This document shows, in pieces, positions 1,081-15,927 of a DNA stretch of 64,000 nt (position 1 is its first letter; each line of letters opens with the position of its first letter). The stretch comes from Thermoproteus sp. (GTDB lineage: Archaea > Thermoproteota > Thermoprotei > Thermoproteales > Thermoproteaceae). The translations under genes and the position numbers were made by a program. The notes under the pieces were generated by a model, which was not told the origin of the DNA, ran no database searches, and worked only from the letters and a program-made list of their open reading frames with translations. The stretch covers positions 32,001 through 96,000 of the forward strand of contig JBMFIG010000002.1 in NCBI GenBank assembly GCA_049976425.1, given 5' to 3'.

Positions 1081-2958
1081 TTATGATACTGTTATACCTA
1101 GGAGCTTGTCCAGCGCTTCCTTGTAGCGGCGCCACCACTCCATGTAGGCCTCGTCGGAGTCGAATTTCCAGTCCTTGGCCCCGAGCTCCCTCGCCATGGT
1201 CGACACCACGTCCATAGCCCTCCTGCTCTCCCATGGCCTCGGATCTGCGCCGGCCTTGATCGAGTACTCGGCGAATCTCTTGTAGAGGCTCCTATCCATG
1301 TCGATCCCCGTCAGCTTGAAGAGATCTCCCAAGATGGGCTCCGCCCACCCTCTGTGGAATCTGCATATTCCGGCGTCTTCCACCAACGACTCCATCACGG
1401 CGCGGTCGTATGCGGTTTTGGCGAACTCCTCGGGCGGCATGTAGGTGGGGTTGTAGTTTGTCCAGTACTTCCCCTGCACGTACATGGGGGCCACCATGCC
1501 GGGCGCCCAGTAGAAGTTGGGCGTCATGTAGCCCTCGTCGCCGTACGCCACGAAGACGGCGAGGTCTCTGAACCTGACGCCGGCCTTGGCCACCCTATCG
1601 GCGTACTTAGCCTCGAAGGCCCTCGCGGCCTTCCTGATGCCCAGCCTCGCGACGTCCTCCACGGCCTCGCCGCCGCCCTCGACGAACGCCCTCAGAAGCT
1701 CGCCCGCCAATCTGGCGTTCTTCTTGGAGTCCGTCTCGGGCTTGAACTTGTAGGGGTCGAAGACGGGGGCGTCGTCTATCCCCACCTCCTCGGGCCTCAG
1801 CAGTCCGTGCTCCACAGCGTCGAAGAGCCAAGCCGTGACGTGGCCCATCTCTATGGCGTCCAGGCCGTAGGCGTCTATCTCGTCGACCAGCTTAACCGAG
1901 TCCTCGAAGGTGTAGACCCCTATGAAGGGGCCCATGGCGTGTAACGGCTCGTAGTCCACCTTCTTCCCCTGCCAGACCTTCTTGCAAGTCACGGGGCAGG
2001 GCTCGCCGCAGTTGTACCAGCTCCTCGCCTTCTCGAAGACCAGCTCGTTGAAGGGCTTCCAGAACAGCCTAAGGATCGCGTCGGCGTGCCTCACCCTCTC
2101 GTCTCTGTCCATATATATCGATTTATACCCGAAGAGCGGGACGAGGTCCCTGTAGTGGACGTAGTTGACGCCGAAGGTGCCGCCGGTGCCGAGGCTCGGG
2201 TCGAAACGGTACTTGATGGTTTTCTCCTGCAAAGACTCTAGGTACCCCTTCTTGAGCCTCACCTTGGCCACCTCGTCGATCTTGTGTATGTCGGCCACCG
2301 CCTGGTACCGCGCCCTCGCCTTGCCGCCCGCTATCAACGCCGCCAGGTTGTGGCCTTGGGCGGCGACCGTGCCGGGCCCTCCTCTCGCGGCGAAATCCTC
2401 GGCGCCTTTAGAGAGCTCGCCTTTCGGCGTCAGGTCTATGGAGGCCAGGGCCCCGTTGTAAGTGCGCCACGCCGCGGGCCCCACCACGACGGCCCGGGCG
2501 TTGTTCCTCTGGAAGAAATCCCTATAGGAGTCGTAGAGGTACTTGGTAAAGGCGTAGACGCCGCGCAGTCCCTGATATTCGTATACGAGCTTCACGGGCT
2601 CTATCTTGACCCCCTCCTGGGATGCCAGCAACGCCACGGGCTCCGGCGCTCTGCCGGTGATCACGTAGGCGTCTATGCCAGCACCCATCATCTTATAGGC
2701 GGCTCCCCCCAAGGCGCTCGAGTGGAGCCCCCTCGTCATGGGGCTTCTGAAGACGGCCACAATCCTGTGCACGCCTATGAGGCGGCCTCCGACGAATCGG
2801 CCCATGCCTATAACCAGCGGCGCCTCCGGCGATAGTGGATCATGGCGCCAGCTCTCCGCCTCCTCGTGCACCTTGAGGCCGAGGCTGACCGGGCCCTGCG
2901 CCTCCACCTCCCTCACCTCCACCGAGGATCTGCCCAAGTCCACGAAAGCGACTCGCAT
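1081..2958 (-). CDS. Tungsten-dependent aldehyde:ferredoxin oxidoreductase family, most likely glyceraldehyde-3-phosphate:ferredoxin oxidoreductase (GAPOR)
   Basis: 625 aa with AOR-family motifs (SALGG, FAARGGPG, GGTFGVNY, CGEPCPVTCKK, DYEP, GICRFHRGW). Confidence 0.85.
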   Translation of the reverse strand: MRVAFVDLGRSSVEVREVEAQGPVSLGLKVHEEAESWRHDPLSPEAPLVIGMGRFVGGRLIGVHRIVAVFRSPMTRGLHSSALGGAAYKMMGAGIDAYVITGRAPEPVALLASQEGVKIEPVKLVYEYQGLRGVYAFTKYLYDSYRDFFQRNNARAVVVGPAAWRTYNGALASIDLTPKGELSKGAEDFAARGGPGTVAAQGHNLAALIAGGKARARYQAVADIHKIDEVAKVRLKKGYLESLQEKTIKYRFDPSLGTGGTFGVNYVHYRDLVPLFGYKSIYMDRDERVRHADAILRLFWKPFNELVFEKARSWYNCGEPCPVTCKKVWQGKKVDYEPLHAMGPFIGVYTFEDSVKLVDEIDAYGLDAIEMGHVTAWLFDAVEHGLLRPEEVGIDDAPVFDPYKFKPETDSKKNARLAGELLRAFVEGGGEAVEDVARLGIRKAARAFEAKYADRVAKAGVRFRDLAVFVAYGDEGYMTPNFYWAPGMVAPMYVQGKYWTNYNPTYMPPEEFAKTAYDRAVMESLVEDAGICRFHRGWAEPILGDLFKLTGIDMDRSLYKRFAEYSIKAGADPRPWESRRAMDVVSTMARELGAKDWKFDSDEAYMEWWRRYKEALDKLLGITVS

Positions 2959-3044
2959 GGGTATACGGGTATTATTCCTCTTATCCTTTTTGGTAAACTC
3001 AATAATAATGATAAAACTTATTATGGTGTGTTATTAGGCCCTTT

Positions 3045-3431
3045 ATGGAGGTCAAAAATATCATGAGCGATCGCGTCATCTACTGCACCACGCGCGACAC
3101 CATAAGGTGCGCCGTCTCTAAAATGTACGCCTACAACATAGGCGCGGTGCTGGTCGTCGACGACGTGGGGAGCCCCGTGGGTATATTCACGGAGAGGGAC
3201 CTCGTCAAGGTCGTGGCCGAGGGGATAAGCCTCGACACGCCTCTCGAGAAGCTGGCGCCTAAGGAGCTGATAAAGGCCTACCCCAACGAGTCCGTGTTCA
3301 TGGCCGCGCAGAAGATGATCGAGCACAACATAAGGCATATACCGGTCGTCGAGGGCAATAGGGTGGTCGGCATCTTGAGCATAAGGGACGCCTTAAGGAG
3401 CTTAATAGCGCTGGAGGGGGCCTACCCCTAA
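3045..3431 (+). CDS. CBS domain pair protein
   Basis: 128 aa with IGAVLVVD...GIFTERD and IRHIPVV...GILSIRD repeats. Confidence 0.9.
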   Translation: MEVKNIMSDRVIYCTTRDTIRCAVSKMYAYNIGAVLVVDDVGSPVGIFTERDLVKVVAEGISLDTPLEKLAPKELIKAYPNESVFMAAQKMIEHNIRHIPVVEGNRVVGILSIRDALRSLIALEGAYP

Positions 3432-3463
3432 TCCTCTATTTAAGGCGATCGTTTTTTGTAGCT

Positions 3464-4144
3464 GTGAAGGAGCTACTGGCTCGCAAGGCGGTCGAGTTCG
3501 TGAGGGATGGGTCGGTCGTCGGTCTGGGCTCGGGCTCCACGGCGAAGGCCTTCATAGAGGAGCTCTCCAGGTTGGTCGCCGAGAAGGGCATAAGGATCAC
3601 CCTTGTCGCCACCAGCGTCGACAGCGAGCTGAAGGCGTTGGAGGTCGGGCTCGGCCCCTATCTGGCGCCGCCTTGGGCTGTCGACAGCATAGATCTAGCC
3701 GTTGATGGAGCCGACGAGATCTCTAGAGACAGGATATTCATAAAGGGAGGGGGCGGCGCGATGGTCCGCGAGAAGGTGATAGACTACAGGGCGTCGACCC
3801 TCGTGATAATCGCCGAGGCCCATAAGCTCGTCGATAGGTTGCCCAGCAACCGCCCGATCCCGATAGAGGTCCTGCCGGCGGCCTGGAGGCTAGTTGCGAG
3901 GGATGTGGAGAGGAGGTGGGGCGGGAAAACCGAGCTGAGGGCCTGCAGATGCGGCGGCAAGCTGGGGCCCCTGATAAGCGACAACGGCAACTTCATACTG
4001 GACTGGGTTCCCCCCGGCCCGGCCTACCCCGAGCTGGAGGACGAGCTGAAGGCCATACCCGGCGTAGTCGACACGGGCCTCTTCGCCAAGAGGAGAGACG
4101 CGGTGGTACTGCTGGCGGACGAGAGGGGAGTCTTTGCTCTATAG
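3464..4144 (+). CDS. rpiA: Ribose-5-phosphate isomerase A
   Basis: GLGSGST, DGADE, KGGGG, REK and SDNGN motifs. Confidence 0.95.
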   Translation: MKELLARKAVEFVRDGSVVGLGSGSTAKAFIEELSRLVAEKGIRITLVATSVDSELKALEVGLGPYLAPPWAVDSIDLAVDGADEISRDRIFIKGGGGAMVREKVIDYRASTLVIIAEAHKLVDRLPSNRPIPIEVLPAAWRLVARDVERRWGGKTELRACRCGGKLGPLISDNGNFILDWVPPGPAYPELEDELKAIPGVVDTGLFAKRRDAVVLLADERGVFAL

Positions 4145-4156
4145 ATCCAAGCGGCT

Positions 4157-5200
4157 CTATAGGAAGACCACCTCGGTCTTGGCGATTATTATATTGTCCT
4201 CGTCCTCGACAACCCTGACTATCGCCTCGGCGCCGGCCCTCAAGGGCCTCTCGGAGACGACTGTCACCGCGCGGTCCGTCAACGGATCGTCGGCAAGTCT
4301 GTTCGGCACCGCCAGATATTCGTTTCTGAAAATGCCGCGCCCCACTATCCTCACCTTTATCCTCTGGCCGGCCTTGACGGTCTTCGGCAGAGCTGGCCTC
4401 CTCTCGACGCCGAACGGGTTCTCCCTGCGCCAGTCCAGCCTCATCCCCAACTGCGCCTCCCATGCCTTGATTCTGCCCCAGAAGACGCCCCAGTCCACCG
4501 CCCTAACGCCTTTGGGGTTTCTGCCTCTCTTATGCGGTATGTACTTCTGTATAAGCACGGGAGGCCACCTCTTGCCCAGACCGGCGGCCCTCGCCCAGCT
4601 CGCGATCTTCGGTATCTGGTCGTCGTTGACGCCCGGTAGCCATACGGGAGAGACCAAGACGTCCATGGAGGTGTTTCTTACAACGTACTCGGCCAGCGCC
4701 ATGGCCTTCCGGGGATCGTAGTAGCTGGCGTTTGCGAGCCTCGCCGCGAGGGAGGGCTCGACGGCGTCTAGGCTGAGGTTTATTCTGTCGAGGCCGGCCT
4801 CGGCGAGCTCCTCTATCTTCCTCTCGGTGAGGGTGAACATGCGGCTCTGCATAGACACGACGGACACGCCCCTTATGGACTTCACGTCTTGGACCAGATC
4901 CACCAGCTCGTTGTAGACGGCCGGCTCGCCCATGCCGTCTATATGCACCTCGACGCCGTCGCCTTTGTACTTCACCACGGCCCTGAGGGCCTCGACAAGG
5001 GCGTCCCTCCTCACCACGAAGTCCGCCCATCTGCGGGGCTCCAGAGGGCCTGCCGCCACGGAGCAGAACACGCAGTTGAGAGGACAGAGGCTCGTCGGCC
5101 TTACCTCAACTACGTTGGTGCCTTGATCCACAATGCCGTAGTAGCGCGTCCCGATCTGCGGAAGCCCGTCGACGAAGTAGATCTCCCTCCGCCGCTCCAC
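4157..5200 (-). CDS. Archaeal radical SAM protein with C-terminal TRAM-like domain
   Basis: CPLNCVFC motif, GIVDQGTNVVEVRP and HIDGMGEP; beta-rich C-terminus. Confidence 0.85.
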   Translation of the reverse strand: MERRREIYFVDGLPQIGTRYYGIVDQGTNVVEVRPTSLCPLNCVFCSVAAGPLEPRRWADFVVRRDALVEALRAVVKYKGDGVEVHIDGMGEPAVYNELVDLVQDVKSIRGVSVVSMQSRMFTLTERKIEELAEAGLDRINLSLDAVEPSLAARLANASYYDPRKAMALAEYVVRNTSMDVLVSPVWLPGVNDDQIPKIASWARAAGLGKRWPPVLIQKYIPHKRGRNPKGVRAVDWGVFWGRIKAWEAQLGMRLDWRRENPFGVERRPALPKTVKAGQRIKVRIVGRGIFRNEYLAVPNRLADDPLTDRAVTVVSERPLRAGAEAIVRVVEDEDNIIIAKTEVVFL

Positions 5201-9194: not shown

Positions 9195-9913
9195 TGTTGG
9201 TGGTCAAATTCGGCGGCTCCGCCATCACGGACAAGAAGAGGCCCTACACGTATAGGTGGGGGAGGCTGAGGGCGGCCGCGCAGGCGCTTAGGGGGACGCG
9301 CGCTATACTCATACACGGGGCGGGCTCCTTCGCCCACCCACACGTGAGGGCCTTCGGCCTAACGCCGGCCGGCGTGGCCAAGACCAAGGCCGCCTTGAGG
9401 AGACAGACCGCGATGGTGGTGGAGGACTTGGCGGCCGCCGGCATCTACGCCATGCCGATCGAGCCCAGCGAGGTCTTCTGGGGCGCCAAGCTCGTCCGCA
9501 GAGAGCCCATCGACGCGGCTCTGTCGGCGGGGCTGTATCCGCTTCTCCACGGAGACGTGGTCCCGTCCGACGGCGGCTACGTCGTGGTGAGCGGCGACGA
9601 TATGGCCGTGGAGCTGGCCTCGGAGTATAGGCCTCGGGCCGTCGTCTTCTTGATGGACGTCGACGGCATATACACCGCGGAGCCGGGAACTCCAGGCGCC
9701 GTGAAGTTGAGGGAGATCGCGGGCGGCGTGGCGGGAGGGGCCGCCGGCATAGACGTGACGGGCGGCATAGCCAAGAAGGTCGAGGCCGGGCTCGCCATCG
9801 CCGGGCTCGGGATACCGGCGTACTATTGCTCCATCGACGACGTTGCCGCCGTCGCCGACCTGGCGGCGGGCAGAGAGCCGGAGACCTGTAGCGTGGCTAG
9901 GCCTAGCAGGTGA
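9194..9913 (+). CDS. Isopentenyl phosphate kinase
   Basis: KFGGSAITDK, HGAGSFAH, HGD, SGDD and DVTGG motifs; overlaps the stop of the prenyl synthase. Confidence 0.9.
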   Translation: MLVVKFGGSAITDKKRPYTYRWGRLRAAAQALRGTRAILIHGAGSFAHPHVRAFGLTPAGVAKTKAALRRQTAMVVEDLAAAGIYAMPIEPSEVFWGAKLVRREPIDAALSAGLYPLLHGDVVPSDGGYVVVSGDDMAVELASEYRPRAVVFLMDVDGIYTAEPGTPGAVKLREIAGGVAGGAAGIDVTGGIAKKVEAGLAIAGLGIPAYYCSIDDVAAVADLAAGREPETCSVARPSR

Positions 9914-10181
9914 CCGTGGGGGCGTTCGCCGTGAGGTACAACGCCAGCACTACATATATCAGCAACAAGACCACGACCGCGCCCCACAAGAGCGTGCTGT
10001 TCCTATCGCGGGCGTAGAAGACCGCGGTGGCCGTCAAGACGCCGAGGACGGTATACCACAGCAGGCCCCCGCACAGGGAGGGGAAGAGCACTATGGACCA
10101 AAAGCCCTGGAGGAATAGGGCCACTAGGACTGCGGCAACCACCGTTATGACCAAGGCGAGCTTGTCGGTCCCGCGCGGCAT
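9903..10181 (-). CDS. Small hypothetical membrane protein (about 3 TM helices)
   Basis: 92 aa hydrophobic ORF with TTTAAA upstream. Confidence 0.6.
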   Translation of the reverse strand: MPRGTDKLALVITVVAAVLVALFLQGFWSIVLFPSLCGGLLWYTVLGVLTATAVFYARDRNSTLLWGAVVVLLLIYVVLALYLTANAPTVTC

Positions 10182-10248
10182 GTACCCCGCGACGGGGGGC
10201 CCATTTAAATGTTCTTAGTGTTTTTAAACAGGTGCCGGGTTCGGTGCC

Positions 10249-10782
10249 ATGTCTGTTCTGACCCAGACAGTGACGAGGTGCCCGGTGTGCGGCGCCAACA
10301 CGTTCAACTACACGGAGTTCCTCTACGACGCGCCGTATTTCGGCAACATAGTGGTCTCGACCGGCTTCTGCAGGACGTGCGGCTACAGATTCTTCGACGT
10401 GGACTACGCCGAGTCGGGCAACCCCACGCGGGTCGTCTTCAAGGCGGAGGACGGCGACGACGTGTCGAAATCGTTGTTGATCAGGTCGAAGACCGGCAGC
10501 GTCAGATCGCCGGATCTGGGCTTCAGCCTCGAGCCGGGCCCCCAGGCCGAGCCCTTCGTGACTACGGTGGAGGGGCTCCTCTACAGAGCTCTCGACTACG
10601 CAGAGCGTCTGAAGGTTTTGGAGCCCGAGAGCGCGCAGAGGGTGGACGAGTTCATGGAGAGAGTGCGGAAGGCCATAGAGGCGGGCGGCTTCACCTTGAT
10701 AGTGGAGGATCCTCTGGGCAAGAGCGTGGTCGTCCCTAGACGGCCCGAGCTTGTGAGGATAGAGCCCCTCGGCAGTACCTAG
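10249..10782 (+). CDS. ZPR1-like zinc finger protein
   Basis: CPVC...PYFG...CRTCGY, TTVEG and EDPLGKS motifs. Confidence 0.92.
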   Translation: MSVLTQTVTRCPVCGANTFNYTEFLYDAPYFGNIVVSTGFCRTCGYRFFDVDYAESGNPTRVVFKAEDGDDVSKSLLIRSKTGSVRSPDLGFSLEPGPQAEPFVTTVEGLLYRALDYAERLKVLEPESAQRVDEFMERVRKAIEAGGFTLIVEDPLGKSVVVPRRPELVRIEPLGST

Positions 10783-11326
10783 CTAGGTAGGTCTTCAGCA
10801 GGTCGGGGTAGGGCGGCGGGTAGCCGGAGAGCTTCTTGACAAACATCTCGATTAGGTCCCTCGTGTCGTATCCTCTCTCGGCGTAGCGGCACGCCCTTAT
10901 TAGAGTCGCCAGCTTGTCGGCGAAGGAGACCAGAACGCCGAGCTTCCCGTCGGCTTTCCTGTAGCTCTGGAAAAGCTCGTAGAGGTGCGGGTACAAGCGC
11001 CTCATTGCCTCGAGCTCCAGAGACTCCCAGTCCACGACAGCCCGGACCCCGTTGCCGGGATGGCCCAGCTCGGCCTCGGCCAGATCGTGTATGGCCGCCG
11101 CCGCGACCGCCTTGGCGACGTCCACGTCCTCGCCTCTAGACCTCAGCTCGGCCGCTATCTCGCCGGCCAGAAGCGCGGCCAGGAAGGCGTGTTGGCACAC
11201 GGTCTCCGCCGCCTCGACCCCCCTCTGCAACCAGCCGATGCGCTTGATGTTGCAGAGCGTGTCGACGACGCTGACGAGGTCCCTGGCCCCCTCCCCGCCC
11301 TTCGGCATTCCCTCAGGGCGAGTCAT
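10736..11326 (-). CDS. HD-family hydrolase (YfbR/5'-deoxynucleotidase-like); the first ~15 codons derive from the IS right end
   Basis: KRIGW, ETVCQH, HDLAEA and ADKL motifs. Confidence 0.88.
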   Translation of the reverse strand: MTRPEGMPKGGEGARDLVSVVDTLCNIKRIGWLQRGVEAAETVCQHAFLAALLAGEIAAELRSRGEDVDVAKAVAAAAIHDLAEAELGHPGNGVRAVVDWESLELEAMRRLYPHLYELFQSYRKADGKLGVLVSFADKLATLIRACRYAERGYDTRDLIEMFVKKLSGYPPPYPDLLKTYLARYCRGALSSQARAV

Positions 11327-12738
11327 CGGCGCCCTCTACCCCTGCCCGTCTGGGCAGGGGTCATGGGGCTGGCCCGGGCCAGCACGGCGGGCCTTGAGAC
11401 GGGCCTCTCGGCTTGGAGGACTATTCTACTCCATTCCTCCAGCCGTCTCTCGTCCACAGCAGATAGGGCTTTCTTGACGATCTCGGCGAATCTGGGATCG
11501 AGTTTTTCCGCGGCCCTCCTCAACATGTTGAGGACGGAGGCCACATCTCTGTGGACCCAGTGGTTGTGCGGACACAGCCCGATCTTCGGCCCCATCGGGA
11601 AGGAAAGCGGTTCGCCGTGTATTGGACACGTCTTGGAGTTCCTGTACGCGGATACCAGCAGGAGCCTCAGCCCCCTCTCCTCCGCCTTATCGGCGGTCTT
11701 GGCCAGTATCGCCTTCATCGGCGTTTGCTTGACGCGGTGCCTCAACTCGGCGTTTCTAGTCCTCTCAACCATCTCCTCTTGAGGCCTCTCGCCTACATCC
11801 TCTGTGATGAGGACGGCGGGCTCCTTCGTTAATTCGTGGGCAACCTTATTGACCCTATCCCTCTTCCTGTCCCTCTCCCTCAGCCTCCTCACCCGCTTCC
11901 TGTACTCTCTCGTGTGGACGCCGGATGCCCTCTTCCCGTTTATTTCTACTGTCAGCTCCTCGGCCCACTTCCTGCGGATCGCGCCGTAGCGCTTGGCCAG
12001 ACGGCCGAAATCGGTGCGGAACACCTTAATCGAGATCGGCGGAGATATCCACTGACAGTTCTGCCGCGCGACCGTATCGACAGTGGCCTTTAGATCAACC
12101 CTAGCCGCGACGACAGTGTTCTCATTGACGTCGAAGGCGGTTATGGCTACGGGCTCCTTCTCCCCTTCTGGCTCCACCTCGTAGGTGAAGACGGCGTATA
12201 CCCTGTCTCTGACGCGCTTCAGCCTAATCGTGCTGGCGCGTTTAGCCCTCCCCGTCTTGGCAAGCCACTCGAACTTCCAGAAGCGTCTGTGGGGCCAGAG
12301 CTCCACTACATGCCTGCCGGACATGAGGCGGATTGATAGAGCGGTCGCCGAGTCGAAGCGCCAGGCATCGCCTCTTACGTAAGGCGCCACGCGCCCCACC
12401 CTCGGAGGCCTCCTTCCCGCCTCGGCCCAAGAGTTGTACGCCTCCACGGCGTCCTTAACCGCCTGTTGCTGGTAGGCGGCGGGGAGGCCGAACTGCTTGA
12501 CGGAGTCCTTCACCTCGTGCCATACGCGGAAGTAGCTGGCCCCCCGTACTTCTCCACGAGGTAGTCCACCGTCATCTGCTTAGCCTTCCTGTACGCCCTC
12601 TCAAGCTCTAGGTAGTCGAGGAGCTGGTTGCCGTCGAGCAGAAGCGGCACTGCGACAGAGCGCCTAACCACCATAACTAAATTAAGGCCTTGTTAAAAGC
12701 CCTACCCCACCCTAAAGGGCGAGGTTTGCCGCCGCTCT
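11283..12738 (-). mobile_element. IS200/IS605-family element, tnpB only (IS1341-like, non-autonomous)
   Basis: Left-end hairpin CCTCGCCC-TTTA-GGGTGGGG (minus strand, ~12705-12725); right end CTCGCCCT...AGGGCGGGGAGGGGGCCAG; tnpB inside; no tnpA. Joining the flanks restores ATG GAC CTC GTC of the HD gene. Confidence 0.85.
11323..12674 (-). pseudogene. tnpB: TnpB RNA-guided nuclease, frameshifted at a G6 run (12540-12545)
   Basis: 5' part MVVRRSVAVPL...VEKYGG from ATG 12674 continues in another frame as ASYFRVWHEVKDSVK. RuvC-I AFDVNEN, RuvC-II ITEDVG, Zn-ribbon-like CPIH...CPHNH and RuvC-III HRDVASVLN are present. Confidence 0.85.
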
Positions 12739-12948
12739 ATGACGCCCGCCCCGCGTGCACAACAACTGTTCGAAAGACATCCGCCCAGCCGTTGGAGCTC
12801 CCTGTGCCATGGAGCGTAATGCCGTGCATCTGTGGCCGGGTTGCTGCATATGGCTTGGCTTGTTGGTCCTCGTCCAGGAAGCACTTGCCCGTGCCACCTT
12901 ACACTAATGGGCCTTTATCGGACTGGAGTTCGAGGTCATCTCTATATC

Positions 12949-13029
12949 TTTCCTAAACTCTCGTCTACGCTTTCCTAAGTAGGAAAAATATAGGCGAAAG
13001 TTTAGGAAGAATGTATTAGGAAGAATGTA
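12949..13029. repeat. Cluster of TTCCTA/TAGGAA motifs, including inverted repeat TTTCCTA-AG-TAGGAAA and a 14-bp tandem repeat TTAGGAAGAATGTA x2
   Basis: Read directly: 12949-12956, 12971-12986, 13002-13015 and 13016-13029. Confidence 0.7.
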
Positions 13030-13037
13030 GATGGAAG

Positions 13038-13445
13038 CTATTTGACGACTAGGACGCTTACGTCGCTTTCCTGCACAAGTCTGCTCGCCACGCTCCCGAG
13101 GAGAGATCTCCGGATCGTCGAAAGCCCTCTGCTCCCCACCACTACTAAATCAGCCTTGACCTCCTTGGCGAATTTCGCTATCTCGTGCGGCGGATCGCCC
13201 TCAAGCAACCTACTCTCGGCTGTCGGGATCACGCCGAGGGCCTCTCTCAGAGCCTTCTCCCCGCTTTCGCGCAGGCTTTTCACAACGCTTGGGGTCGAGA
13301 AGGCCTCCGAGAGCGACAAAACGGCGGTGTCGACCACATGAACCACGTATACCTTGGAACCGAACTTCTCAGCAATTACCTTTGCAGTCTCGAGAGCCTT
13401 TTTGGCATGTTGAGACCCGTCGTACGCTACGACTATGGTCTTCAT
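13038..13445 (-). CDS. Universal stress protein (UspA family)
   Basis: IVVAYDGS, VVHV, DLVVVGSRG and LLGSVA motifs; start set at MKTIVV. Confidence 0.93.
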   Translation of the reverse strand: MKTIVVAYDGSQHAKKALETAKVIAEKFGSKVYVVHVVDTAVLSLSEAFSTPSVVKSLRESGEKALREALGVIPTAESRLLEGDPPHEIAKFAKEVKADLVVVGSRGLSTIRRSLLGSVASRLVQESDVSVLVVK

Positions 13446-13631
13446 AGAGAGGTGACCGACTCTGGTTTTTAACATTTCCGTCATAGTAATACCTAATTTG
13501 TGAGAATGAGATATATTTATTTATTGATTAATATTATTTAATTATAAATAAAATAAAATTACTATAGGTTGGTTCATCCAAATAATCGTCTTGGTGCGTA
13601 TCTAAGGTGCTTTTATAGGGTCGTTTTCGGC

Positions 13632-14198
13632 ATGGAGCACCTGTCCATATACCGCATGGCTGACGCCGTCCACGCCCTATTTGCGATCGATAGAGAGCCG
13701 TATGCGCTGAACGCGTTTCTGAAGATAGCAAACAGCTGGGTGTTGAGAGCGCTTTCCGACGTTCCGGGCTCGGATCTCAGGAGGCGTGCTTGTGGGGCCT
13801 TTATAAAACTGCTGGACAAAGCACGGAGCGTATTGGAAGCCCCGGCGGTCGTCAGAGCGCCCTGCTCGCCTAGAGGCGCGGCAAAGATAGAATCTATTAA
13901 GTACAGTGGCTGTGCCAAGTTTTTGGCAGAATGGGGGGCCGAGTTTGTCTATAGGTTTGTCTACGACGAAAGGATAAGGGCTAGGGCCGTAAAAGCTGCC
14001 GCGAGAAATTTGGCGGCTTATATGCAATACGGCTTGAGGGTCGAGGGCCCATATGCTGACGACTGGCTTGTCCTCGCCGAGGCTCCGCCGAGCTACGAGC
14101 CCCGCGACGTCGTGTGGAAGCCCTTTATGGCCAGAGTAAAGGTAGACATACTGCCTCAATGCGTGCAACTGTCCGCGGACGTTAGGACATGGATGTAA
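13632..14198 (+). CDS. Hypothetical protein, first gene of the pilus-locus operon
   Basis: ORF after an AT-rich divergent promoter region; overlaps the next gene; start set at MEHLS. Confidence 0.6.
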   Translation: MEHLSIYRMADAVHALFAIDREPYALNAFLKIANSWVLRALSDVPGSDLRRRACGAFIKLLDKARSVLEAPAVVRAPCSPRGAAKIESIKYSGCAKFLAEWGAEFVYRFVYDERIRARAVKAAARNLAAYMQYGLRVEGPYADDWLVLAEAPPSYEPRDVVWKPFMARVKVDILPQCVQLSADVRTWM

Positions 14199-14890
14199 AG
14201 GTCGATATAATAAACGCAGACAATCTCGCCGACTTCTTGAAGGAGCAGGCCGGAGCCACGGTGATAGATCCGTATCCCGAAATCGTGCCGACGGCGTTGG
14301 AGGACAAACTGCTATATCTAGCCTCGTCAATATACGGAGGGATAAGTCCTCTACCGCTGTTCTCGTTTGAGAAGGGAGGGGGCCGTTATTTACTGTCGCC
14401 GAGGCTCCACAAGCTTTTGGCCGACCTAATGCCGGGCCTCAAGGTGCTCCATATAGAGGTTGTCGGCGAGCCGCAGTACCCGTTTACGGCGATCGCGCTC
14501 GTGCTCAGAGATCTCGGCATCAGCGTCGACGAAAAATTCCTCAAGCAGTACATCTGTCCCGAGCTTGCCGCGTTGGAGGAGGACGACGTGCCGCTGGCGC
14601 GCGCCATAAGATCTGCCGTGTCCAAATACCTGACGATGGCGTCGTCGGGCGCCTCGACGCGATCGATAAAGTGTTTCTGCGGGCTCTGCGAGGATCGCGG
14701 CAGTGGACTGGACCTAGACGCGCTGGCGTTGAGCTTGACGAAGAGAGGCGCGTCGAGGGCATACAGCCGCCGCGGGTTAATGGACCTAAACGACGAGGAC
14801 AAGGCCATAATCATGCGCGTCATAAGAGGGCTTTCCATACCCGAATTCAGAAGGGAGCTCATCGATCTGCTCAACCGATATGAGGTATAG
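14189..14890 (+). CDS. Hypothetical protein with CxCxxC motif
   Basis: 233 aa containing KCFCGLC; overlaps both neighbours. Confidence 0.65.
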   Translation: MDVKVDIINADNLADFLKEQAGATVIDPYPEIVPTALEDKLLYLASSIYGGISPLPLFSFEKGGGRYLLSPRLHKLLADLMPGLKVLHIEVVGEPQYPFTAIALVLRDLGISVDEKFLKQYICPELAALEEDDVPLARAIRSAVSKYLTMASSGASTRSIKCFCGLCEDRGSGLDLDALALSLTKRGASRAYSRRGLMDLNDEDKAIIMRVIRGLSIPEFRRELIDLLNRYEV

Positions 14891-15233
14891 ACGCGGCGAC
14901 TTCGAGGCGTCGTTTGTGCGGATAGGCGGGGACAAGTACAGAGTTGAATTAAAGTATAGGGGGAGGCCTCTAAAGATTAAGAAGATTGTTTTGGAGTATC
15001 TCGTCTACGATCGTTACAGATATGCCGTAGATCCCCACAGCGAGGTCCTCTACGTATTTATCTCGCGGACGCCTCCCGTAGTTGTCAAGTCGGCATGGAG
15101 GTCCTCCAAGATAATAGCGAAGGCCAAGGACGGCGCTCTGGCCGCCGTCGCCGACGTTGTCCTCGACTTCGCCGAGGTCTACATGACGGCGTACAGGGCC
15201 AATGCCCTCGATAGATTATTCCATGAGGACTAA
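14880..15233 (+). CDS. Hypothetical basic beta-rich protein
   Basis: 117 aa overlapping both neighbours. Confidence 0.6.
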   Translation: MRYRRGDFEASFVRIGGDKYRVELKYRGRPLKIKKIVLEYLVYDRYRYAVDPHSEVLYVFISRTPPVVVKSAWRSSKIIAKAKDGALAAVADVVLDFAEVYMTAYRANALDRLFHED

Positions 15234-15927
15234 GTTCGCGGTTTTCTTCTCGGTCGACGGCGGCGTGGGCAAGACGACGCTGGCGCTGGCCACCGCTTTT
15301 GAGAAGGAGAGGGTCCTCATAATAGATGCCGATTGGGAGAAGGCTGATCTATCCTCGATCTTCGGCGTTCCCAAAAGGCCCGGATGGCTCGCCGGCCGGT
15401 ACGGCAAGGACGTCTACGTGCATAAAGTTCGCCCAAACCTCTACGTGATACCCGGCTACGAGGCTGCTATGCTGTACCAGTCCGGCAAGATAGGCGACTC
15501 CGAGCTCTTCGAGGCGCTCTACGATACCCTAGTCGCGCTTCCCGACGCCTTGGCCGAGGAGCGTCTTCCGGTGGATACCGTGATTGTCGACACGCCGAAG
15601 GCGCTACAGCTGACGTGGATTGAGGCCTTGCAGAGGAAGCTCAAGGCGCTTATGTACTTCGTAGCCGATAGGCGGCTCGTCACGAGGATAGCCGATGTTA
15701 AGATGCAGATATACGGCAGATACATGCGCTACGCCTCGCTTATAGTGGCCAACATGTTGGAGAAGGGCGACGAGAAGGCCCCCGGTATAAAGATGGTAAA
15801 CGCGTTCTTGACGAGGGTCAAGATGCCCTCCGATTACTCAGCCGAGAGGATATACAAGGCGGTCTTAGGGGATCGGCGGAATAGAGAGGCGTTGTCGTTG
15901 TTGGTCAAGTGGATAAAAGAGAAGTGA
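15223..15927 (+). CDS. MinD/ParA-family ATPase (TadZ/CpaE-like)
   Basis: SVDGGVGKTT Walker A, LIIDAD, VIVDTP and IVANM motifs; start set at MRTKF. Confidence 0.85.
   Translation: MRTKFAVFFSVDGGVGKTTLALATAFEKERVLIIDADWEKADLSSIFGVPKRPGWLAGRYGKDVYVHKVRPNLYVIPGYEAAMLYQSGKIGDSELFEALYDTLVALPDALAEERLPVDTVIVDTPKALQLTWIEALQRKLKALMYFVADRRLVTRIADVKMQIYGRYMRYASLIVANMLEKGDEKAPGIKMVNAFLTRVKMPSDYSAERIYKAVLGDRRNREALSLLVKWIKEK

Follow-up and report, generated by a model that had tools for sequence, protein, structure and literature searches.

What becomes of a gene when a transposon lands inside its start codon? The question is raised by a stretch of 64,000 nucleotides (nt) from Thermoproteus sp. (assembly GCA_049976425.1, contig JBMFIG010000002.1, positions 32,001 to 96,000 of the forward strand; hereafter the window). 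Here, a tnpB-only element of the IS200/IS605 type, 1456 bp long (11283..12738, minus strand), stands directly ahead of a gene for an HD-domain phosphohydrolase on the same strand. A preliminary description, made from the letters of the window alone, had proposed that the element sits within the start codon of the HD gene and supplies a replacement. Our comparison with related genomes and with other copies of the element supports part of this proposal and changes the rest. We propose that one copy inserted at the HD start, that a second copy sat beside a universal stress protein (USP) gene ~690 kb away, and that recombination between the two inverted the intervening segment. We give this account as a whole a probability of about 0.65.

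The HD start codon and the ends of the element

The HD gene (10736..11326, minus strand) is a frame of 196 amino acids (aa), open from an ATG at 11326 to 10736. It matches the Pfam families HD_3 (40.6 bits, cut-off 22.5) and YfbR-like (29.5 bits, cut-off 25.9) and has the H...HD...D residues of a YfbR-like HD-domain phosphohydrolase, with the HDLAE motif kept. Orthologs were found in 39 of the 41 genomes searched, and the upstream sequence was read at 29 loci. In all eight other genomes of the genus the gene starts with ATG GA(C/T) CT. (MDL), directly 3' of the end of gatD (Pfam Asparaginase, Asparaginase_C and GatD_N), which confirms ATG GAC as the native start. The gatD/HD junction reads TGATG in five of these genomes, and TAGATG, TAAATG and TAATG in the other three. 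In G007, the closest complete genome, the HD gene is 94% identical and its site is uninterrupted (...GGGAAGCTTTGAT|GGACCTC). The window's right flank begins at exactly the G of G007's ...TTGAT|GGACC site, and the native part of the HD gene thus spans 10736-11282.

This match indicates that an element of the family inserted 3' of TTGAT, between the AT and the G of the ancestral HD start codon. The position follows from the overlap of the gatD stop and the HD start (T-TGA-TG-G): an insertion 3' of TTGAT splits the start codon there and leaves the gatD stop intact. On the minus strand, the right junction reads ...GGGGCCAG|GGACCTCGTC at 11283|11282 (with more of the element, ...GGGGAGGGGGCCAG|GGACCTCGTC...). 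The left junction reads ...GGGCGTCAT|AGAGCGGC at 12739|12738 (with more of the element, ...GGGCGTCAT|AGAGCGGCGGCAAACC...). No duplication flanks the element directly at the two junctions.

Are these the true ends of the element? The window's genome (G000) is a 1.84-Mb draft in 96 contigs and holds one full-length copy, that of the window, and five partial ones. Contigs C20 and C24 each begin with a left end, the 682-nt contig C84 carries a right end, C19 has a truncated copy and C31 a solo right end. Two sister-genus genomes (G023 and G012) carry full-length copies whose proteins are 69-74% identical. The boundaries, as first drawn, fit the 13-14 copies against which they were set. Similarity ends at the same right-hand base over 13 distinct copies, with the consensus ...GGRGGYCAG; the terminal bases are CAG in 10 of the 13, CGG in two and CAT in one. 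AT closes the left flank in 13 of 14 rows, which represent 11 of 12 distinct sites (YNAT), and is followed directly by A(G/A)(A/G)GCGG.... The flanks TTGAT and TTTAT occur three times each, and CTGAT, GTGAT, GCGAT, CTTAT and GTCAT (the window) once each; the exception is copy L086. Sister genomes provide empty sites for four junctions (TTGAT|GGACC, TCGAT|ACGCC, GTGAT|CTGCTCC and GTGAT|ATGAAT), all without duplication; the genomes searched had none for copies L091 and L100. Insertion of IS200/IS605 elements is expected to leave no target duplication, and the family behaves accordingly in inserting at a motif without duplicating it, except at L086 and at the USP/C84 locus, where 8-nt duplications are present.

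The structure of the ends also fits this class of elements, as subterminal hairpins are present at both ends without terminal inverted repeats. The left end (12675..12738, minus strand) carries the hairpin CCTCGCCC-TTTA-GGGTGGGG and an A/T-rich box (CTTTTAAC), both conserved over 14 alignment rows. The box lies ~24 nt ahead of the tnpB ATG and may be an archaeal promoter. The right-end hairpin (CCGCCC.../GGGCGG) is conserved among the copies, as is the left one. A search of the window's genome (99.4% complete, 96 contigs) for a Y1 (HUH) TnpA with PF01797 gave no match, whereas control genomes matched. The element thus appears to be non-autonomous, and the same query found no TnpA in this genome that could act in trans.

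Some copies of the family are unusual. L086, in G012, lacks the YNAT motif and keeps its left hairpin through paired changes. Mini-elements of 46-47 nt, consisting of the left-end tip joined to the terminal hairpin and tip of the right end, are present in G007 (L061, ~2550-2596) and G012 (L127, ~1488-1533). They occupy the sites of longer copies in a sister genome (C24 in the window's genome and L080 in G023) and resemble products of internal deletion between the two hairpins, which are similar to each other.

The left flank and a probable inversion

Joining the two visible flanks of the element gives ATG GAC CTC, the native MDL N-terminus of the orthologs. The preliminary description had read this as one simple insertion at ...GTCAT|GGACC..., with the window's flanks as the two halves of the HD start site and (G)TCAT as the target. 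We consider a single insertion of this kind very improbable. The reading predicted the sequence from 12739 onward ahead of orthologous HD genes; no ortholog has it there, and gatD occupies the position in G007 as in the other congeners (8/8). The window's genome still has its own gatD end (...TTGAT), on contig C20 beside another left end. Moreover, G007 has the counterpart of the window's left flank ~690 kb away, and the 297 nt beside the left end are missing from 28 related genomes. Our comparison therefore retains the insertion between AT and G on the right-hand side and sets aside the pairing of the two flanks.

The left flank, made up of the USP gene (13038..13484, minus strand; Pfam Usp, 118 bits), 297 nt unique to the window's genome (12739..13035) and, within these, the motif GTCAT (12739..12743, minus strand), is by this comparison not the partner of the HD flank. 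The AT that completes the apparent HD start codon would be the end of the motif of a second copy, not the ancestral AT. The apparent restoration of ATG is readily explained, as left flanks in the family end in AT (11 of 12 distinct sites) and any of them joined to the HD flank gives ATG. The AT ending of the proposed target motif is therefore borne out by the family and its empty sites, whereas GTCAT itself belongs to the other locus and not to the HD site.

Where, then, are the missing halves? The gatD end on C20 reads ...CCCCGGGGGGCTTTGAT|ATAGGCGGCGGCAAACC, and the left end beside it is only 79% identical to the window's. BLAST alignments place the breakpoints precisely. At the HD locus of G007 (L008), positions 1-1496 match C20:1937..419 and positions 1497-3540 match window 11282..9240. 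At the USP locus (L037), positions 1501-4162 match window 13036-15698, from the USP gene onward, and positions 1217-1508 match C84:1-292, abutting the C84 right end. The overlap, L037 1501-1508 (AAATAGCT), matches both C84 and C2, the window's contig. All four junctions fall at element ends. In G007, the USP and HD loci lie ~690 kb apart and in opposite orientation relative to the window, the pattern predicted by an inversion between inverted copies.

We therefore propose the following sequence of events. A copy X would have inserted 3' of TTGAT at the gatD/HD junction. A copy Y would have sat 3' of GTCAT, downstream of the USP gene, ~690 kb off and in opposite orientation. Recombination of X and Y would then have inverted the intervening segment. 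One product would be that of the window, USP-297 nt-GTCAT|left end ... right end|G-GAC-HD; the reciprocal product would run from gatD-TTGAT|left end (C20) to right end|AAATAGCT-next gene (C84). The HD gene would have lost both its own start codon and its operon partner gatD. The window's element is probably a hybrid, with its left-end side from Y and its right-end side from X, since its flanks derive from two different G007 loci. Inversions are known to arise by recombination between inverted copies of insertion sequences, and two features resemble such cases: each of the four junctions coincides exactly with an element end, and the sister genome has the two loci in opposite orientation. Two others differ, namely the low identity of the visible copy parts (57-81%) and an 8-nt duplication at one locus that neither the IS200/IS605 mechanism nor simple recombination explains. 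We think it likely that the ~690-kb inversion is real; recombination as its cause is suggested by the arrangement of the copies.

Several observations weigh against this account. C20, C24 and C84 all end inside elements in the 96-contig draft. In favor of the account, a hot-spring metagenome (X1, a DNA data set available as contigs only, in which 0.40 of the query words matched; a second data set, X2, gave none) contains a 158-nt contig that spans the left junction (12696-12853) with zero differences. It possibly comes from the same population and so is not independent. Against the account, the X1 contigs that match the flanks stop at 11274 and 13036, and the right junction is bridged by none of the X1 contigs among the matches listed. 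Where they overlap the window's copy, the partial copies on C20 and C84 are just 57-81% identical to it; homologous recombination between X and Y would therefore need a more similar middle part that is not seen. Sliding identity of the window's copy against eight full-length and four partial copies stayed within 57-90% for all, with no clear chimera signal. Finally, the 8-nt duplication AAATAGCT surrounds the 297 nt and the element together, unlike a plain IS200/IS605 insertion.

Some of these observations would also be expected if the rearrangement were an assembly artefact. The genome would then be collinear with G007, and contig C2 would be mis-joined inside the element. Copy X would consist of the C20 left end and the window's right end, between gatD and HD, and copy Y of the window's left end and the C84 right end, 3' of the USP gene. 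The draft state of the assembly, with three contigs ending inside family elements, is in keeping with such a mis-join, as are the absence of the middle of the C20/C84 copy from the assembly, the breaks of the X1 contigs and a depth of 3.2 over 12744-12977 versus 12-19 over the flanks. However, the window's element shares no identical stretch with C20, C24 or C84 and is 57-81% identical to them near their ends, so the assembler had no repeat to thread through. A search of C20, C24, C84 and C18 found no contig-end overlaps, and the left junction is bridged by the X1 contig. We consider an artefact unlikely and continue with the inversion.

The 297-nt segment was also searched on its own. It had no match in 28 other genomes of the family, and a low-stringency BLAST over all fetched loci gave nothing new. 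Exact-pattern scans of metagenome contigs gave 0 matches both for the end of the segment and for the junction of the right end with the HD gene. Its first ~100 nt (window 12936-13035, minus strand) form a palindromic unit of ~85-100 nt that resembles a miniature inverted-repeat transposable element, with ends CCATCTACATT.../...AATGTAGATGG. One copy of this unit abuts the USP stop, and a partial palindromic match is found at C62:1202-1285.

Two insertions of the family are flanked by similar 8-nt direct duplications: AAATAGCT around the 297 nt and element 3' of the USP gene (13036..13043, minus strand, and C84:285-292, beside the C84 right end), and AAACAACT around L086 in G012. The sister genomes G007 and G023 (L123) each carry the respective 8-mer once. 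Filled-in staggered TnpB cuts are a conceivable origin of these duplications; no matching guide could be named.

The truncated copy on C19 (C19:11431-11975, L002) marks a further synteny breakpoint against G007 (1101934-1103304 and 683424-684920). Its left side matches a G007 locus with a truncated copy of its own, and the DNA beyond its right end corresponds to a second G007 locus, ~420 kb away. Ahead of that right-flank junction, G007 ends in TTTGT, not AT.

A possible start codon within the right end

The HD frame remains open despite the insertion, and the features on which this depends are all as first read from the window: the two junctions without flanking duplication, an ATG overlapping the tnpB stop as ATGA (11323..11326, minus strand), a second ATG in the same frame (11306..11308) and the uninterrupted HD frame. 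The right end does provide an in-frame ATG. The ATG of ATGA (11326) is preceded by GAGGG with a 5-nt spacer, and 11 of the 15 rows of the right-end alignment have ATGA. The 15 first codons (44 nt) of the present frame derive from the right end. Initiation at ATGA would add 15 residues to the protein, and initiation at the second ATG, 18 nt further on, would add 9. For the full-length protein, translation would have to begin within the right end, since the conserved N-terminal motif (VVDTLCNIKRIGW) is encoded 3' of the junction. From this arrangement we infer that the HD gene uses the new start. To be transcribed, the gene would depend on read-through, either from the presumed tnpB promoter at the left end or out of the USP gene. 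Insertion sequences can supply outward promoters or fusion starts to neighboring genes, and the HD locus would resemble such cases in that the element's end provides a translation start, and probably transcription too, for the downstream gene.

Is the HD gene still functional? Compared with G007, its ratio of nonsynonymous to synonymous substitution rates (dN/dS) is 0.12, as between other pairs. Its dN to the outgroup G008 is 0.087 for both the window's genome and G007 and thus shows no acceleration on the window's lineage. These values suggest that the gene is still under selection, or else that the event is recent.

The second of these possibilities leaves room for a different explanation: that the HD gene was knocked out. 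Start codon and operon promoter would both be gone, the open reading into the right end would be due to chance, and too little time would have passed for decay. Several observations speak for a knock-out and, in part, against a designed rescue. In each of the 15 rows, owing to the G-rich sequence, the frame runs open from the right-end start to the end of the element whatever the phase. The phase itself is not conserved: of 13 distinct copies, 6-7 are in phase 2, five in phase 0 and one or two in phase 1. The upstream tnpB is frameshifted, which makes translational coupling at ATGA doubtful, and the right end shows no TATA-like box. Against a knock-out stand the dN/dS of 0.12, the equal dN of the two genomes to the outgroup and the intact N-terminal motif. 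Furthermore, one other copy alone has a Pfam-supported gene directly at its right end, and it too is in frame. Overall, a knock-out is possible but seems the less plausible outcome to us.

That other copy, L085 (G023:217542-218687), lies near the start of a 6-O-methylguanine-DNA methyltransferase gene (PF01035, 77.6 bits) in a Pyrobaculum-like genome. The empty site in G012, where the gene is 99% identical, reads ...GGTGAT|CTGCTCC, and 11 other methyltransferase orthologs start with GTG or ATG two codons ahead of a conserved Cys. The insertion therefore split codon 2 (GTG AT|C). The ATG in the right end of L085 is in frame with the methyltransferase and gives an open reading frame (ORF) of 163 aa. 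The start codon stranded on the left flank of L085 is GCG in G023 versus GTG in the empty G012 allele (L108).

Among 13 copies, the HD copy and L085 are the sole ones with a Pfam-supported, co-oriented gene directly at the right end, and both are in frame. The other co-oriented frames that leave a right end matched no Pfam family (C19, 183 aa; C31, 106 aa; L091, 221 aa; L101, 96 aa; L086, 87 aa; L080, 80 aa). The L091 frame was ruled out as a start-codon insertion; it is a piece of a multi-copy family with frames of 440-500 aa elsewhere. At a further site (GTGAT|ATGAAT; L096 in G023 and L130 in G012), a copy lies directly ahead of an ATG, and the frame that follows, possibly a gene, is open in G012 and stops after 12 codons in G023.

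Does the element rescue the genes it hits? The preliminary description had suggested that its end may do so when it splits a start codon, and that a motif ending in AT would bring it into start codons repeatedly. The methyltransferase gene lends some support to the first idea; the variable exit phase does not. Since the exit frame is not conserved across the family, rescue looks opportunistic, with insertions at gene starts persisting where the frame fits by chance. The second idea did not hold, as only one of 13 right flanks splits a verified ATG. The right flank of L100 also starts with G but opens merely a 7-codon frame.

A bolder proposal is that the right end carries a conserved Shine-Dalgarno-like box and ATG (GAGGGCGCC-N-ATGA) as a portable translation start, and that the family has a second, TnpA-independent insertion route that leaves 8-nt duplications (AAATAGCT, AAACAACT). 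The sequences would allow this combination, which we regard as improbable. The motif (T/G)TGAT overlaps stop-start junctions (TGATG) and start codons (GTG-AT). If the proposal were true, insertions would therefore often fall within the first two codons and would survive only with an in-frame right-end ATG. The host gene would also be tied to the transcription of tnpB, and possibly to the binding of TnpB to its own RNA.

TnpB, its predicted guide and related systems

The main ORF of tnpB (11323..12513, minus strand) encodes 396 aa. It matches most of the NCBIfam profile guided_TnpB (E 1.1e-16, 61 bits), short of the curated cut-off of 100; L091, an intact relative, matches the profile with an E of 2.9e-17, and scores are 61-63 bits over ~330-350 profile positions. 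The Pfam TNB domain scores 22.4-22.6 bits (22.6 for the window's ORF), under the cut-off of 26.3. In an alignment of 18 sequences, D183, E293, D378, C351, H354, C369 and H373 are invariant. The protein thus has the RuvC-like D-E-D nuclease residues and the zinc-finger insertion (CPxH...CPxxH) of TnpB (OrfB), although the window's gene is frameshifted. Its relatives, of 445-460 aa, come from Thermoproteus and Pyrobaculum assemblies and are named 'IS605 OrfB family transposase' in the source. A PDB sequence search with the intact relative gave 0 matches, and in a PDB profile search the sole match was Cas12f1, a weak one (E 0.0019). We take these similarities to mean that the protein is a significant homolog of TnpB belonging to a divergent clade.

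A 54-aa ORF upstream (12510..12674, minus strand) encodes the N-terminus, and the two ORFs together make up a single tnpB gene, interrupted at six consecutive Gs (12540..12545). The segment around the run is 105 nt long in the in-frame copies (L091, L100, L096, L086 and C20) versus 98 nt in the window and L080. Among nine full-length copies, the frame is lost within the same ~20-nt purine-run segment in four and kept in five. The window and L080, from another genus, share an identical change of -7 nt; the change is -1 nt in L090/L081 and +1 nt in L085. This segment may be a slippage hot spot or a site of regulated frameshifting.

In TnpB systems, the right end of the element is transcribed to the scaffold of an omega RNA, the adjacent flank serves as the guide, and cleavage needs the motif that stands 5' of the left end. 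The last ~110-135 nt of the family form 24 predicted pairs, most of them invariant in the 13-copy alignment, and the highly conserved core of the window's right end (11283..11393, minus strand) is a candidate omega RNA scaffold. An Rfam scan of 10500-13600 with E up to 1 gave no match. The guide of the copy adjoining the HD gene would be the first ~16-20 nt of that gene; the first 20 nt of the right flank (11263..11282, minus strand) run from the third base of HD codon 1 to codon 7. The natural target would be the empty gatD/HD junction, TTGAT followed by those bases. Three of the few HD changes specific to the window's lineage relative to G007 and G008 (I3V, N4S and A8T) lie within the first eight codons, the presumed guide segment (11258-11282). 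Positions 3, 4 and 8 also vary over the genus, and the cluster may be meaningless.

How does the element compare with known ones? The motif of ISDra2 is TTGAT, and insertion occurs 3' of this pentanucleotide without duplication. ISDra2, from Deinococcus radiodurans, and the homing model of TnpB are reportedly the subject of work by Karvelis in 2021 and Meers in 2023. The window's family resembles ISDra2 in its motif-directed insertion without duplication, with TTGAT among the commonest left flanks (three sites, as for TTTAT). It also shares the subterminal hairpins, the structured right end that overlaps the 3' end of tnpB and the guide expected from the right flank. It differs in that the window's genome has no detected TnpA, the motif is looser (YNAT) and tnpB is frameshifted. 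Compared with TnpB of the ISDra2 type, the window's protein is distant, falling under the curated cut-offs with a weak match to Cas12f1 in PDB.

Another parallel is offered by the solo-tnpB elements (IS1341-type) of Sulfolobus islandicus, which have TTTAT beside the left end and whose TnpB, where tested, cleaves 15-28 nt from the motif and leaves 5' overhangs (PMC10640517). Sense-overlapping RNAs are described at the 3' end of archaeal IS1341-type tnpB genes (PMC4615843). The resemblance lies in an archaeal thermophile host, a tnpB-only element, an AT-ending motif at the left end and a conserved RNA-like 3' region, and the difference in that the window's protein belongs to another clade, the insertion here is in a start codon and the copy is an inversion breakpoint.

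Taken together, the case is mostly ordinary transposon biology: a tnpB-only IS200/IS605 element in a start codon and at the breakpoint of a probable ~690-kb inversion. As the apparent ATG of this locus illustrates, recombination between copies can make it misleading to join the visible flanks of an insertion sequence. Cas12 descends from TnpB elements, which now serve as genome editors; their landing sites and their effects on neighboring genes are therefore of practical interest. The locus offers a clean natural target with an empty allele (TTGAT plus the first HD codons) and a family-level motif that ends in AT. A limited full-text search found no title or abstract on an IS200/IS605 right end replacing a start codon, which is a thin basis for calling this unreported. 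The locus illustrates how the end of a transposon may take the place of a start codon that was lost, and the use of the right-end ATG, if true, would be a means, so far unreported, by which IS200/IS605 elements reduce the damage done by insertion at the start of a gene.

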